From a virus (Duplodnaviria; Heunggongvirae; Uroviricota; Caudoviricetes), in the IMG/VR virus record IMGVR_UViG_2541047936_000003: a stretch of DNA of 22,968 bases; one strand, written 5' to 3'. The translations under genes were made by a program, and so were the position numbers. A model generated the notes under the pieces. The model worked only from the letters and a program-made list of their open reading frames with translations. It had not been told where the DNA came from and searched no databases. Position 1 is the stretch's first letter, and every line of letters starts with the position of its first letter. Shown in pieces: positions 2,430 through 19,661 of this stretch.

Positions 2430-2507
2430 CGCGCCACAATCAGGGCAGTTGCCGCCGCCGGTCTGTGAACCGCCCCGGGTTTCCTGGAGAGTGTTTTATC
2501 TGTGAAC

Positions 2508-3398
2508 TCAGGCTGCCAGATCATCGTTTCCGATGGAAGCATAATAAGCTTTTTCTGCTTCTGCCGGAGGAGTATGGCCCAGCCTTTCCAGCAATCGTCG
2601 ATTGTTATACCAGTCCACCCACGTGAGTGTGGCCAGTTCCACTTCTGCACGGTTTTTCCAGCTCTTACGGTGTATTACCTCCGCTTTGTAAAGACCATTG
2701 ATGCTCTCCGCCATCGCGTTGTCATACGAGTCGCCTGTACTTCCTGTTGATGCCAGTAATCCGGCTTCCTTAAGCCGCTGTGTGTAGGCCAGCGATACAT
2801 ACTGAGAACCTTTATCACTGTGATGGACCGTGCCGGACGGTCGACGGGCCCATAACGCCTGCTCCAGTGCATCCAGCACGAATGTCGTTTCCATGGACGA
2901 TGAGACCCGCCACCCCACGATGTATCCGGCAAACACATCAATGATGAACGCCACATAGACGAAGCCCCGCCATGTGCTGACGTAAGTAAAATCAGCCACC
3001 CACAGCTGGTCAGGTCGTTCTGCCACGAACTGACGGTTTACGCGGTCGCCTGCGGCAACGGCTTTCCGGCTGATGGTCGTACGGACCTTTTTACCCCGGA
3101 GAACACCGGCAAGTCCCATAACCGCCATGAGGCGCGCCACTGTACATCTGGCCACCCTGATTCCTTCCCGTAACAACTGACGCCAGACTTTACGCACACC
3201 GTACACCTGATGATTTTCATCGTATACGCGCTGTATCTCTCTCTTCAGCCAGTCATCGTGCTGCGCACGGGCACTGCGTTTATCCGGATGATGTCGCTGT
3301 TGCTGACAATGGTAATACGTTGACGGGGCAATATGCAGTTCGCTGCATACCGGTCCGACCCCGTACTGCTCACGCAGCTTATCCAGCAGTGGCATCAT
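2508..3398 (-). CDS. IS629 transposase OrfB (DDE / rve catalytic domain)
   Basis: 296-aa ORF immediately downstream of and overlapping OrfA in the -1 frame, the IS3-family layout; integrase-core-like sequence. Confidence 0.85.
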
Positions 3399-3721
3399 TT
3401 TTTCCAGAGGCGGTCGAACTCCGCCTTCGCAAAATAAGCGGAAGCCTGGCGAAGGATATCGTTACTGCGGCGCAGTTCACGATTTTCACGTTCCAGCTCT
3501 TTCAGACGCTGACGTTCAGCGCTGGTGAGCCCACCATCACCGCCCCCGGTATCCCGCTCATGCTGGCGAACCCAGACACGCAGAGTCTCCGGCGTACAGC
3601 CAATCTTTGGGGCAATGGAACAAATTGCCGCCCACTGTGAGTCATATTCATCCTGACTTTCCAGAACCATACGGACTGCCCGTTGACGGACTTCGGGGGA
3701 AAAACGAGTATTTTTAGTCAT
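3395..3721 (-). CDS. IS629 transposase OrfA (HTH DNA-binding; leucine-zipper region)
   Basis: 108-aa ORF starting [23 protein letters not shown], recognised as IS629/IS1203 OrfA; an A6 run (minus strand, 3398-3403) at the OrfA/OrfB overlap fits a programmed -1 frameshift site. Confidence 0.85.
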
Positions 3722-3838
3722 CCTGTTTACCTCTTTCTCAGGAAGTTTAGTCTCCAGGATTCCCGGGGCGGTTCAGAAGAGCGAAGTTATGCAGCGCATA
3801 CTGGCTTTCTATCAGGGTAATTTTCAGGACGTGGCGCA

Positions 3839-4285
3839 GTGAGTGCACCGGCAACCATTCTTGATATGTGCTGTGGCAGCCGCATGTTCTGGTTCGATAA
3901 GTCTGACGAACGGGCGATATTCAGCGATATCAGAAAAGAAGGATACACATTACGCAATGGGAGACGCTTGATTATCAGCCCTGACATTATCGCAGATTTT
4001 CGTGCATTATCATTTGCAGACGCATCTTTTTCGATGGTTGTATTAGACCCTCCGCATCTTGAGAGTGTTGGTGATAACGCCTGGATGGGAAAGAAATATG
4101 GACGGCTGAATAAAGATGCCTGGCGTGATGATTCGCGACAGAGATTTAAAGAAGCCTTTCGGGTGTTGAGGCCGCACGGCGTTCTGATTTTTTAATGGAA
4201 TGAAACGCAAATACCGGTAAGCCAGATTCTGGCACTGACAGACAGAAAACCTGTTATCTGTCAACGAACAGGGAAAAAACGATAA
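3839..4285 (+). pseudogene. SAM-dependent (DNA) methyltransferase-like gene interrupted by an in-frame TAA
   Basis: Translation has a motif-I-like DMCCGS and a motif-IV-like VVLDPPHL (DPP[YFWH] class); in-frame TAA at 4193-4195 followed by 29 more open codons to TAA at 4283-4285; start is GTG 3839 or ATG 3866. Confidence 0.45.
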
Positions 4286-4457
4286 AACCCACTGGATTAT
4301 TTTTATGAAAGAGGCATCCAGTGAGTAGATTCGTAAGGCTACAGATACGTATATCTGAATAATTAAATTCAGTTCTGTAAATAAAATTTAATCCTTAACC
4401 GGATGGATTTCTGCACCCTCAGAACATCAGGAGGCCGCCCGAAAGGGCGGTAGTGAA

Positions 4458-4640
4458 ATGCGAAAGTTCAAAATTATTATTGAAACGGGAATAGCTGGTG
4501 GAGATTTTGAGGATGTATTCGAAGTGGACGATGACGCAACACCTGAGGAAATTCATGACGGAGCATAAGAAATTTTCTTTAACTACTGCAATTACTCATA
4601 CCACGAAATAAAAGACGATGAGGAAGAACAAAGTGGCTGA
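4458..4640 (+). pseudogene. hypothetical small acidic protein, in-frame TAA at 4566
   Basis: ATG 4458 sits behind a GC hairpin with a GAAA loop; 36 codons, TAA at 4566-4568, then 23 open codons to TGA at 4638-4640. Confidence 0.3.
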
Positions 4641-4692
4641 TTTTTGTTCAGCTAAATATAACATCAGTTTTGAAGAGCGGGATGAACTATTA

Positions 4693-4809
4693 ATGGACTA
4701 TGGTGAGTTACGCGGTGGAAGTGCTGCTGATGTCGAATCCTAGCGTGATGACTATGAAGCGGGAAAAACTCCGGTCGAAGCATATTGTGATGAGTGGGGC
4801 GATGAATGA
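4693..4809 (+). pseudogene. hypothetical small protein, in-frame TAG at 4741
   Basis: 16 codons, TAG at 4741-4743, then 21 open codons to TGA at 4807-4809; its stop overlaps the next ORF's start (ATGA), suggesting translational coupling. Confidence 0.25.
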
Positions 4810-5093
4810 GCGAGATTAATTATCAGGAAGGGCATGAAACGGCGGGGCAAGCAAAACCAGTGGCATGGCGATATCGCTACGTGAAAAAAGGCGTTACGGA
4901 CTTTCAGGGGAAGTAGTGGTCTGGTGACTGGAAATATGTACCGAAAAAAGAGGATTGTAACGACAGGCCGAACTATCAAATTCAGGCCTTATTCACTGCC
5001 TCACCAGTCCCAGTTACATCAGAAGAACTGGTTAAAGCTGTGCACTTTTATGAACAACTAAAACGCGAAAATCCACCAACATCCGGCAACTAG
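4806..5093 (+). pseudogene. hypothetical protein, in-frame TAG at 4914
   Basis: 36 codons (MSEINYQEGHE...), TAG at 4914-4916, then 58 open codons containing no ATG before the stop at 5091-5093, which argues the downstream stretch is a continuation and not a separate gene. Confidence 0.35.
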
Positions 5094-5347
5094 ATTAATG
5101 GATTAACTATGTCGGTTAAACGACCAGCCAACTGAAAAAGCGGAAACCTGATTACAGGTTGCCAGATAAGGCAATGAGCTACCTGGCGCGGAACGGACTG
5201 ATAAGTATGGGGAATGTTTTACGATGAACCTTTAGACTAAAGAGTTTGTAACGCTATGTAAGTGATTTTTTCTGGTTTAGATATTTATATGTCCGGCCAA
5301 ATTGAGGTGTGTTTAAATGTAATTGCACATTGATTGTAGGAGGAATA

Positions 5348-5527
5348 ATGAAAAACGCATTGCAGTTTTTGTTTGTTGCGTTCTGGTTGTTCGCATCATG
5401 TATGCCCATCATCTTCACAGCAAGGTATATGGAAAAAGTTGATGTTTTGATATTAATATTTGGATATATAAATGCCCTTTTTTTAGGGGTGTTCATGGCG
5501 GTCATGTGCATTGAATACTGGCGGTAA
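5348..5527 (+). CDS. small hydrophobic membrane protein (59 aa, two predicted TM helices)
   Basis: Strong SD GTAGGAGGA at 5336-5344 placed 3-4 nt before ATG 5348; translation MKNALQFLFVAFWLFASCMPIIF...LILIFGYINALFLGVFMAVMCIEYWR is two hydrophobic segments. Confidence 0.5.
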   Translation: MKNALQFLFVAFWLFASCMPIIFTARYMEKVDVLILIFGYINALFLGVFMAVMCIEYWR

Positions 5528-5861
5528 ATACAGCGAACTCCATTGGTTTAGTTGGATATTTACTGTGCTGGACAAAAACGGTTTGCGGGGAAATCTTAGT
5601 TAAGTAGAATGACTGCGGGTGCTTGAGGCTATCTGCCTCGGGCATGGACACCAACGGCAGATAGAGAAAAGCCCCAGTTAACATTACGCGTCCTGCAAGA
5701 CGCTTAACATTAATCTGAGGCCAATTTCATGCTAGACACATGTAGGTTAGCCTCTTAGGTGCCGAAAGGCACGGAGAAGCAGGCTATTGTTAACACCAAG
5801 CTGTAATGTCCCCTTTGAACCATTCTAAAATGTCCCCAGACAATTCTCTGGGGGATTTTTC

Positions 5862-7175
5862 ATGATCAAAGAGACTGTTACGATGAGTCATAAGGAACTC
5901 CACCGACTTCAGATTATTCAGGAACAAGCTGCGGCACGCATTGGCATTTCTATTCGGCAGGTTAAACGTCTGGTGCAACGGTATAGAAATGAAGGGCCTT
6001 CTGGTCTGGTTTCCCACCGACGTGGAAAGCGTCCTAATAATTCCTTTTCTACTGAATTCAGAGCAACAGTAATTTCACTCCTCAAAGGCCGTTACGCTGA
6101 TTTTGGACCTACGTTTGCGTGCGAAAAATTGCGCGAGATACACGGTTTATCTTTATCCGTTGAAACTCTCAGAAAGTGGATGATAGAAGAGGGGTTATGG
6201 CGTGAACGCCGTCGTAAAATTGCCCGTATATATCAACGCCGCATGCGACGACCATCTTACGGTGAACTGATCCAGATTGATGGCTCACCTCATGACTGGT
6301 TTGAAAATCGAGGCCCCAGATGTACACTGATCGTTTTCATTGATGATGCCACCAGTGCGTTGATGGCGTTGCGTTTTGTGCCTGCTGAAACAACCCGGGC
6401 TTACATGGAAACCCTCCGGGGTTACCTTAATGATCATGGCGTACCGCTCGCTCTCTACTCTGATAGACACAGTATATTCAGGGTAAATAACCCAGAGCGG
6501 GAAGGTGAGCTGACCCAGTTCACTCGTGCGATAAAGACACTGGGCATCGAGCCAATCCATGCCAACAGCCCGCAGGCAAAAGGGCGGGTAGAGCGCGCCA
6601 ATCAGACACTACAGGACAGGCTGGTCAAAGAAATGCGGCTTCAGAATATCAGTGATATTGAAACAGCAAATGCATGGTTGCCGACCTTTATTGAAGCCTA
6701 TAACAACCGGTTCGCTACGTCGCCTCGTACTACTGATAATGCTCATCTTGATGTGCACCATTCTGAAGAGGAACTGGGTTATATCTTCAGCCTACAGGCG
6801 AAGCGCGTTCTGTCTAAAAATCTCACTTTCCAGTACAAAAGCAGTGCGTTTCAGGTACGCAGTGAGGGCCGGGGATATCGACTTAGGCATTCGGTTGTTA
6901 CTGTATGCGAGAACTTTGACGGTGAAATTAACGTTCTGTATGACGGGAAAGCGCTGGGCTGGGAAAAGTATGTTGATGGCCCGGAGCCTATACCACTGGA
7001 TGATGAAAAGAGTGTCCATGAACGAGTGGATAATGCCCGTATTGATTTACGCTCAAAATACTATGTTAAACCTAAAGCTGACCATCCCTGGCTTACGCGC
7101 CGAACGCAAAGTCATCAGCAAGTTAAGCCCCCGAAGTTACCTAAAAAGAAGCCTGATCCCGATAAAAAAGATTGA
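5862..7175 (+). CDS. DDE-type transposase/integrase (rve core with N-terminal HTH; IS481/ISNCY-like)
   Basis: 437-aa ORF; N-terminal HTH-like segment (ARIGISIRQVKRLV), catalytic-core-like segments (IQIDGSPHDWF, LYSDRHSIF, RVERANQTLQD) and a Lys/Pro-rich C-terminal tail. Element ends not identified. Confidence 0.8.
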   Translation: MIKETVTMSHKELHRLQIIQEQAAARIGISIRQVKRLVQRYRNEGPSGLVSHRRGKRPNNSFSTEFRATVISLLKGRYADFGPTFACEKLREIHGLSLSVETLRKWMIEEGLWRERRRKIARIYQRRMRRPSYGELIQIDGSPHDWFENRGPRCTLIVFIDDATSALMALRFVPAETTRAYMETLRGYLNDHGVPLALYSDRHSIFRVNNPEREGELTQFTRAIKTLGIEPIHANSPQAKGRVERANQTLQDRLVKEMRLQNISDIETANAWLPTFIEAYNNRFATSPRTTDNAHLDVHHSEEELGYIFSLQAKRVLSKNLTFQYKSSAFQVRSEGRGYRLRHSVVTVCENFDGEINVLYDGKALGWEKYVDGPEPIPLDDEKSVHERVDNARIDLRSKYYVKPKADHPWLTRRTQSHQQVKPPKLPKKKPDPDKKD

Positions 7176-9074: not shown

Positions 9075-9230
9075 ATGAAGCAGCAAAAGGCGATGTTAAT
9101 CGCCCTGATCGTCATCTGTTTAACCGTCATAGTGACGGCACTGGTAACGAGGAAAGACCTCTGCGAGGTACGAATCCGAACCGGCCAGACGGAGGTCGCT
9201 GTCTTCACAGCTTACGAACCTGAGGAGTAA
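9075..9230 (+). CDS. hokD: HokD (RelF) Hok-family membrane toxin
   Basis: 51-aa ORF MKQQKAMLIALIVICLTVIVTALVTRKDLCEVRIRTGQTEVAVFTAYEPEE, translated by hand (below the ORF-track cutoff); SD AGGAGAAGCAGGCT-ATG. Confidence 0.85.
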   Translation: MKQQKAMLIALIVICLTVIVTALVTRKDLCEVRIRTGQTEVAVFTAYEPEE

Positions 9231-12494: not shown

Positions 12495-12794
12495 AAAAAT
12501 TCCTTAATACTGATAACTTGGCGCACTATACACACGTTCCTGAAGAAAGCTATAGTTTTTTGATGGGGTTGAAGATGGCTGGATGTCTAAAATAAACATT
12601 GCTTCATATGTTCAACTATGCGTTAATGATTGCGTCGGTTTGAAGAACAGACGATATACGAAGTAGTTTACTAAAGCAGTTCTCATTTCAGGTGTTATTC
12701 ACTTATTCCTTCTTTGAGTCTCTCCAATTAAGTACGAAGTCGTTTCTGTTATGCAAACCATTTATGCCGAAAGGCTCAAGTTAAGGAATGTAGA

Positions 12795-13010
12795 ATGTCA
12801 AATAAAATGACTGGTTTAGTAAAATGGTTTAACGCTGATAAAGGTTTCGGCTTTATTTCTCCTGTTGATGGTAGTAAAGATGTGTTTGTGCATTTTTCTG
12901 CGATTCAGAATGATAATTATCGAACCTTATTTGAAGGTCAAAAGGTTACCTTCTCTATAGAGAGTGGTGCTAAAGGTCCTGCAGCAGCAAATGTCATCAT
13001 TACTGATTAA
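12795..13010 (+). CDS. cspB: cold-shock protein CspB-like
   Basis: 71-aa [41 protein letters not shown]... with RNP1/RNP2 motifs (KGFGFI, VFVHF). Confidence 0.9.
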
Positions 13011-13291
13011 AATTCATCGCTCGTCTGTATACGATAACGAAGAAGGCTGATGCCTGAGTAGAGATACGGACAGAGTAGTGAATATTGGATCTCTTTAATA
13101 AAAAGTAAGGAGGTCCAATACATGAAACAATGGCTAGCATATTTGGCAAAATCTTAATCAGGAAAAGTATGCTAACCATTGTGGTGAAGTGCAGGTTTGC
13201 TGCATGAATAGTTTTACAGCAGAAGCTAACTGCTGGCATGGCAAAACAAAGTGCGTAAGTGGATGACTCCCACAAAAAGCACCACAATCTC

Positions 13292-15319: not shown

Positions 15320-15681
15320 GGTAATATTAAATCGGAACATTTACATCGCGGAATGTAAAATTTAAATAAAAAGGACTCTTCCATGAGCCAAAATTCCTGA
15401 AATCTTAAGGGTAAGATAAAAGGTCTTAATCAGAATGACACGTTTTATTAATAAATAAAGCTATTCTTTCATTGCTGTGTTTTTCTTTACAAAAGTAATC
15501 CTTGCTATGGGTGGTTAATCATGCGTTAATGGTGTTCTGGTTTGTTACAAATTTATCTGAAGCAGTCATTGTTATAATTTTATTATTTGTACCTCTTGAG
15601 ATTTCCTTGTTGGTTTTTCTCTCTGATATTTTTTTTCGGACCATTCTGCCCAAGGGCTAATTTCTTCAAAAGGTAATAATT

Positions 15682-15894
15682 ATGTCTAACAAAATGACTG
15701 GTTTAGTGAAATGGTTTAACCCTGAAAAAGGTTTTGGTTTCATCACGCCGAAAGATGGCAGCAAAGATGTGTTTGTCCATTTCTCAGCAATTCAGAGCAA
15801 CGATTTCAAAACATTAACTGAGAATCAGGAAGTTGAATTTGGTATTGAGAACGGACCTAAAGGTCCTGCCGCTGTTCATGTAGTGGCGCTTTGA
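15682..15894 (+). CDS. cspI: cold-shock protein CspI-like
   Basis: 70-aa [41 protein letters not shown]...; long AT-rich 5' leader upstream. Confidence 0.9.
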
Positions 15895-16098
15895 GGTAGA
15901 CAATATTACAAACCATATTCACTTTAGATGCCCGTGTTGTCATGGTTCCCAGTATAGAACATCATCTTTTGATGTTTCTGACATGAATCCTTTCGGGGCA
16001 AAATGTATCTTTTGTAAATCAATGATGATTACATTTGATAATATTTCACAATACTTAAATGCCAGCCGTCTGTCGTTGGATTTAAAAAAGTGAAAATG

Positions 16099-19086: not shown

Positions 19087-19661
19087 TGGCATTCAGAATG
19101 AGTGAACAACCACGGACCATAAAAATTTATAATCTGCTGGCCGGAACTAATGAATTTATTGGTGAAGGTGACGCATATATTCCGCCTCATACAGGTCTGC
19201 CAGCAAACAGTACCGATATTGCACCGCCAGATATTCCGGCAGGCTTCGTGGCTGTTTTCAACAGTGATGAGGCATCGTGGCATCTCGTTGAAGATCATCG
19301 GGGTAAAACGGTTTATGACGTGGCATCAGGGGACGCGTTATTTATTTCTGAACTCGGTCCGTTACCGGAAAATGTTACCTGGTTATCGCCGGGAGGGGAA
19401 TATCAGAAGTGGAACGGCACAGCCTGGGTGAAGGATACGGAAGCAGAAAAACTGTTCCGGATCCGGGAGGCGGAAGAAACAAAAAACAGCCTGATGCAGA
19501 TAGCCAGTGAGCATATAGCGCCGCTTCAGGATGCTGTGGATCTGGAGATCGCAACGGAGGAAGAAACCTTGTTGCTGGAAGCCTGGAAAAAGTATCGGGT
19601 GTTGCTGAACCGTGTTGATACATCAACTGCACCGGATATTGAATGGCCAGCACTGCCGTAG
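19086..19661 (+). CDS. tfaQ: tail fibre assembly protein (Tfa family)
   Basis: 191-aa ORF immediately after the stf fragment (stop/start overlap); Tfa-like N-terminus [39 protein letters not shown]. Confidence 0.85.

Follow-up and report, generated by a model that had tools for sequence, protein, structure and literature searches.

Decay of four accessory genes in a copy of the Qin cryptic prophage of Escherichia coli

Four consecutive genes in the window, by which we mean the whole 22,968-nucleotide stretch of DNA analysed here, are pseudogenes in a copy of Qin, the cryptic (defective lambdoid) prophage of E. coli located at the rspB / ydfJ site. Their condition is very probably due to neutral decay of the usual kind, affecting accessory genes of a prophage that is grounded, with no special mechanism at work. 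Comparison with other genomes revealed the lesions, the ancestral states that they replaced, their fixation, and ongoing decay; we infer that fixation came about by relaxed selection (drift) and not by selection for loss. The pseudogene status of the genes is already known: RefSeq/PGAP marks them 'internal stop' or 'frameshifted; internal stop', and PGAP makes the same calls in sister genomes with an annotated Qin.

Over its first 12 kb, the window matched the E. coli Z1323HEC0011 chromosome (NZ_CP148385) at 100% identity. In the annotation of the matching Z1323HEC0011 region, the prophage is flanked by rspB and ydfJ and carries the Qin markers int, flxA, ydfV, relBE, hokD, rem, ydfU and ydfT, together with cspB/F/I, essD, rrrQ, nohA, tfaQ and pinQ. 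The four-gene segment has replication genes on one side and hokD, rem, ydfU and the antiterminator ydfT on the other, and is the accessory, nin-like portion of the early-right operon. The features of the segment, and the insertion sequence beside it, are as follows.

2467 to 3776 (approximate boundaries), minus strand: IS3-family (IS629-like) element; placed by annotation and by the match to IS-free strains, which starts at 3776
3839 to 4328, plus strand: pseudogene of a phage class I SAM-dependent DNA methyltransferase; identified by profiles and by comparison with four intact homologues
4193 to 4195, plus strand: premature TAA in the methyltransferase; AAA (Lys, in VLIFKWNE) in 4/4 intact homologues
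4271 to 4273, plus strand: 1-bp insertion, GGG against GG in intact homologues; frameshifts the 3' end of the methyltransferase
4458 to 4640, plus strand: ORF1, pseudogene of a DUF7167 60-aa protein; TAA at 4566-4568 for AAA (Lys37)
4633 to 4809, plus strand: ORF2, pseudogene of a 58-aa ORF, phrog_519 (unknown function); homologue alignment
4806 to 5227, plus strand: ORF3, pseudogene of a 171-aa ORF, phrog_660 (unknown function); homologue alignment
4884 to 4889, plus strand: A6 run in ORF3; A5 in two other loci (L003, L013) and A8 in phage vB_EcoS-640R1

The IS629-like element adjoins the last ~60 nt of a DUF977 gene, just upstream of the methyltransferase, and contains an ALIL frameshift pseudoknot at 3324-3440 (Rfam). 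In NCTC9008 and the phage record PhiR42_1, the genes before the methyltransferase run in the order dicA, dicC, a YdaT-family gene, an O-like replication gene and DUF977. The window therefore differs from other Qin copies, such as that of NCTC9008, in having an IS3-family element where those have dicA to DUF977; the element has displaced the immunity and replication genes (dicA, dicC, YdaT-like and O-like), and the DUF977 remnant on one side of it is matched on the other by a truncated 3'-5' exoribonuclease gene. This Qin copy and its relatives keep the methyltransferase-to-ORF3 segment, unlike K-12 MG1655, which presumably is without it and has just ydfX and ydfW between dicC and flxA. The Qin cryptic prophage is described for K-12 and other strains in two published accounts (PMC3105296; PMC6379469), and is highly variable and mutation-prone between strains (PMC6379469). 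Our reading of the segment as decayed agrees with the published variability of Qin (PMC6379469; PMC3105296).

To compare the segment with its intact counterparts, we retrieved homologues from phage records and from other prophages of E. coli, and aligned 3-6 intact copies of each gene. The intact methyltransferase is 157 aa long. One intact homologue (L005) matched phrog_954 'DNA methyltransferase' (2e-86) and lay just above the cutoff for Pfam Methyltransf_11 (PF08241; 24.2 bits, cutoff 21.2). The window translation carries the SAM-binding motif ILDMCCGS and a DPPH motif, as a class I methyltransferase does. The window ORF at 3839-4195 begins with GTG and encodes 118 aa, a cut-down N-terminal part of the enzyme with the last 39 residues missing in frame. 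The TAA at 4193 is an A-to-T transversion (AAA to TAA). Owing to the inserted G, the true C-terminus (...GKNDKTHWIIFMK) sits in another frame than the continuation after the TAA; it is the +1 frame from 4272 that reads as in the intact C-terminus. Sister-strain PGAP labels the gene 'frameshifted; internal stop', and in many genomes PGAP counts the shortened 118-aa product as a valid CDS. Substitutions private to this methyltransferase, polarised against intact homologues, comprised 14 transitions and 17 transversions. At 80-90% identity, 390 records held methyltransferase homologues, and 4/4 of those fetched were intact.

ORF1 has a single stop. At position 4566, six intact homologues have AAA, and the window has an A-to-T transversion that ends the DUF7167 copy at codon 37; PGAP labels it 'internal stop'. 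An intact homologue belongs to DUF7167 (PF23768, 6.9e-14, 52.1 bits, cutoff 24.4) and matches phrog_1997 (1.2e-30). Between a GGAGG motif and the DUF7167 ATG lies a perfect hairpin, GCCGCCC-GAAA-GGGCGG (4430-4457), which is identical in every aligned homologue, intact or broken, and may serve as a conserved element controlling translation or transcription.

In ORF2, the stop TAG at 4741-4743 replaces TGG (Trp37) through a G-to-A change at 4742. The real start of this gene is 4633, which is ATG in the homologues and GTG here; the upstream ATG at 4618 is not the start. The 36 codons upstream of the stop hold nine private missense changes, and the 21 codons after it encode amino acids identical to those of the intact homologues. 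This tail is near-identical at synonymous sites too, in all homologues, and so represents a low-divergence mosaic block and not the effect of protein-level selection. ORF1 and ORF2 each have one stop and no frameshift in the window, and their overlap coupling is kept. As the initial annotation had noted, the read-through frame of ORF2 terminates in a TGA that overlaps the ATG of ORF3 as ATGA (4806-4809). No Pfam family was found for the 58-aa ORF or the 171-aa ORF, and PHROGs returned 'unknown function' families alone.

ORF3 carries several lesions. Its first stop, TAG at 4914-4916, stands where intact copies have CCG (Pro) or CTG (Leu), so that two substitutions (4914-4915) were needed to create it. 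A 90-nt in-frame deletion at about 5079 is flanked by AATCCACCA direct repeats; intact L006 and L007 have 30 extra ORF3 codons relative to the window. A second premature stop, TAG at 5091-5093, is CAG in the intact homologue (C-to-T), and a 4-nt frameshifting deletion follows at 5124/5125. The original terminator is the TGA at 5225-5227, and PGAP marks the ORF3 span 'frameshifted; internal stop'. The A-run at 4884-4889, which differs in length from strain to strain, is a slippage hotspot at which frameshifts are added or removed. Downstream of ORF3, on the plus strand, we also observed a small hydrophobic ORF that lacks annotation (5309-5527). It has a GGAGG Shine-Dalgarno and encodes 59 aa if read from ATG 5349 or 72 aa if read from GTG 5309; L004 and L014 conserve its start. 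What phage records annotate here is an opposite-strand 252-nt ORF ('hornerin').

Over 3839-5227, then, five codons have become stops, one start codon is altered, two indels shift the reading frame and one deletion removes 90 nt. At the five stop positions intact copies have AAA, AAA, TGG, CCG/CTG and CAG, and the remaining damage is of several kinds (+1 G at 4271-4273, -90 at ~5079, -4 at 5124/5125, and ATG to GTG at 4633). The stop-creating changes are themselves mixed, comprising two A-to-T changes, one G-to-A, one C-to-T and one double substitution, and hence indicate no single mutational burst or signature. Intact lambdoid cassettes, examples of which occur in E. coli AVS0787, E2855 and OkiPb01715 and in the record of Actinobacillus phage vB_Apl-pPE4, have 85-93% DNA identity to the window, with the same gene order and start/stop overlaps and the same hairpin ahead of the DUF7167 gene; unlike the window, they have sense codons at all five stops and neither the +1 nor the -4 indel. 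The last of these records (L007, PP818812.1) is attributed to Actinobacillus pleuropneumoniae and has ~90% DNA identity to the cassette; its host attribution may merit checking.

These comparisons change the picture given by the initial annotation, which had described four genes in 3839-5093, each with exactly one in-frame stop and no frameshift. The four stops that it listed (TAA 4193, TAA 4566, TAG 4741 and TAG 4914) are present in the sequence and its translation, and the frames stay open beyond them for 29, 23, 21 and 58 codons, a set of continuations with a joint chance from base composition of about 1.6e-4; the 58-codon continuation indeed has no in-frame ATG. It was also right that the genes are broken and not genuinely short, because independent intact homologues read through with sense codons, and homology identifies the stretches after the stops as the rest of the same genes. 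The pattern of one stop and no frameshift is nonetheless contradicted by the +1 G, the 4-nt deletion and the second ORF3 stop at 5091, and arose from the choice of ORF ends: the TAG at 5091-5093, taken as the natural end of ORF3, is premature, and the affected span runs to 5227. The proposal that Gln or Trp codons would occupy the four positions in homologues held in that all four are sense codons, but Trp is found only at 4741, the others being Lys, Lys and Pro/Leu. Likewise, of the transitions suggested (CAA, CAG or TGG to stop), TGG to TAG at 4742 is real, and the other listed stops come from two AAA-to-TAA transversions and one double change. The argument that neutral decay would have left indels, and that none were seen, fails on the two frameshifting indels and the 90-nt deletion, to which sister strains add frameshifts, IS insertions and stops of their own.

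No Rfam element was found within 3839-5227, and all matches lie elsewhere in the window. A sok (hok/sok antitoxin RNA) match of 105 bits at 5617-5788 (plus strand) ends at the start of an ISNCY/ISEsa1-like element, whose 437-aa transposase ORF occupies 5862-7175, and appears to belong to a second hok/sok locus that the IS has interrupted; sister-genome annotation places an intact hokD farther along, at ~9075-9230. The matches at 12634-13026, 15536-15921 and 19429-19627 (plus strand) are two cspA-type thermoregulator leaders and an IS009 small RNA. By sister-genome annotation the leaders stand upstream of cspB and cspI, and the leaders and IS009 are expected Qin cargo.

Next, we determined how widely the broken alleles are shared by searching 5,426 complete E. 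coli genomes. At an identity of at least 99%, 382 records matched the methyltransferase segment and 504 the three small ORFs. The two full rankings were sampled at even intervals, giving 40 rows for the methyltransferase and 60 for the small ORFs; the best 15 and the best 7 of these, respectively, showed 100% identity. Carriers include ATCC 8739, NCTC9008, O55:H7 and O139:H1, and come from human, pig, bird and water isolates. We also probed the collection with 71-mers that put a sense codon back at 4193, 4566 or 4742. No exact match was obtained in the 5,426 E. coli genomes; at 95-99% identity (1-3 mismatches), the same probes matched 475, 632 and 506 records, respectively. Since hundreds of genomes share the alleles and no restored-codon match exists, the stops are fixed in the Qin-type allele and are neither sequencing errors nor a recent strain-specific event.

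The initial annotation had offered recent mutation and sequencing error among its explanations; with the same stops shared by about 380-500 complete genomes of E. coli, from varied hosts and serotypes, neither holds, and sequencing error is excluded. An assembly or sequencing error, or a recent burst of mutation in one strain (e.g. a mutator strain), would account for the clustering of the stops and for nothing beyond it. The identical sequence in hundreds of independent complete assemblies, from varied laboratories, hosts and serotypes, and the mixture of substitution types leave such an origin a vanishingly small probability.

The order of the lesions can be partly read from relatives with fewer of them. 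In strain 64 (L011), ORF1 and ORF2 are intact, yet ORF3 has both TAGs and both the 90-nt and the 4-nt deletions. Phage vB_EcoS-640R1 (L004) likewise has ORF1 and ORF2 intact, and has TAG 4914 and the 90-nt deletion; its A-run is longer by a further +2, and the stretch that would hold 5091 and the 4-nt deletion is absent. Thus, the decay of ORF3 predates the other stops or moved independently of them. Decay also continues strain by strain. L003 and L013 have lost one base from the ORF3 A-run; L020 and L022 have an extra ORF2 stop (TCA to TAA at 4649); L022 has ISEc52 inside ORF3, at a window-equivalent position of ~4846; and AH21 (L008) has IS1 inside the methyltransferase.

We then asked whether the number of stops exceeds what neutral decay would give. 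In the polarisable part, changes private to the Qin-type lineage comprised about 33 missense, 29 synonymous and 4 nonsense. The ratio of 33 missense to 29 synonymous changes corresponds to roughly dN/dS 0.4, a value drawn from few changes in which functional and neutral phases are mixed and which recombination confounds. When all single-base changes of the intact sequences were enumerated, 4.3-5.0% were nonsense, with a stop-to-missense ratio of ~0.065. Taking 20-33 missense changes as belonging to the neutral phase, 1.4-2.3 stops are expected and 4 were observed; a count this large or larger has a probability of about 0.05-0.2, a figure uncorrected for the fact that its stops were what drew attention to the region. 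Nonsense changes are somewhat more numerous than neutrality predicts, but the excess is not significant.

This count bears on the suggestion, also made in the initial annotation, that selection inactivated a toxic or restricting module. If carrying the methyltransferase and the genes next to it imposed a cost on the host or poisoned it, knock-out alleles would be favoured and an operon-wide excess of nonsense mutations would follow, and the four stops, together with the involvement of all four consecutive genes, point that way. The excess is not significant, however, in a region chosen for its stops, and other prophages of E. coli often carry intact copies, with the 390 methyltransferase records joined by about 1,450 small-ORF records at 80-95% identity. 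Moreover, ORF3 carries lesions where ORF1 and ORF2 are intact, which shows that inactivation did not strike the four genes as a unit. No cognate restriction or toxin gene adjoins the methyltransferase in the window or in nine related loci, where the neighbours are DUF977, ead/Ea22-like, DUF7167 and hypothetical genes; the idea of a restriction-modification or toxin module under selection for loss was set aside on this ground. We regard selection for loss as very unlikely.

Polymorphism within Qin was examined in an alignment from which L008 was left out owing to its IS1 insertion. It held 9 non-synonymous, 1 nonsense and 8 synonymous polymorphisms, a small sample that recombination confounds; with so few polymorphisms, the non-synonymous share is below the roughly 3:1 neutral ratio. 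Downstream of the stops, 4/4 polymorphisms were synonymous (a small sample). Several of these polymorphic sites carry states that are also found in intact homologues, and recombination or ancestral polymorphism therefore suffices to explain the synonymous bias.

The synonymous changes after the stops would also be expected if the stops were tolerated or regulatory, with low-level read-through keeping ORF1 and/or ORF2 expressed at a reduced level. The frames of both genes stay open after the stop, their translational-coupling overlaps are kept, and the 21 codons at the end of ORF2 still encode the intact amino acids. Against this, functional homologues are without these stops, and no tRNA gene, and hence no suppressor tRNA gene, was found in the window. 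In E. coli, TAA is generally the stop codon least prone to read-through, and the stops of ORF1 and the methyltransferase are TAA. ORF2 has lost its ATG, has its nine private missense changes upstream of the stop, and in some strains has the second stop at 4649, while the conservation of its tail reaches synonymous sites, as in a mosaic block. Read-through could not rescue the methyltransferase or ORF3, which have frameshifts and multiple stops. These considerations make read-through of ORF1 or ORF2 extremely unlikely. Programmed read-through or recoding was rejected as well, homologues having sense codons and 2/4 genes having frameshifts or extra stops downstream; no tRNA gene was found in the window, nor any relevant Rfam element in the region.

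Read-through has been proposed for many bacterial in-frame stops by Belinky et al. 2021 (PMC7918605), and the stops conserved there resemble ours in being kept through many genomes. The difference from the stops of that study (PMC7918605) is that conservation here reflects one recently shared allele at 99-100% identity, which comes with frameshifts, additional stops and, in some strains, IS insertions, and which shows no clear sign of purifying selection.

A wider form of the same idea is that low-level read-through of ORF1 or ORF2, or retained N-terminal fragments together with the 118-aa methyltransferase, serve a role of benefit to the host. The chance of this appears exceedingly slim. If true, a retained role would explain the uniformity of the allele in hundreds of genomes as well as the synonymous polymorphisms after the stops.

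Neutral decay, the explanation we favour, would have proceeded as follows. Once the prophage had lost lytic growth, the four accessory genes would no longer have been under selection. Independent point mutations then piled up (five nonsense, one start-codon change and about 33 missense), the indels (+1, -4 and -90) likewise accumulated, and all became fixed in the Qin lineage. The broken genes are now passed on with the prophage in several hundred E. coli genomes, and later decay in separate strains has brought new stops, the A-run frameshift and IS insertions. The products would be shortened or absent, and presumably non-functional.

Beyond housekeeping, the importance of these relics is slight. 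A tidy pattern of single stops can stem from where ORFs are ended, and alignment to homologues exposes further lesions. The decay forms a series, in which ORF3 was broken first (or its broken form moved independently), the methyltransferase, ORF1 and ORF2 followed, and strain-specific changes came last, and its steps could serve as markers of Qin sub-lineages.
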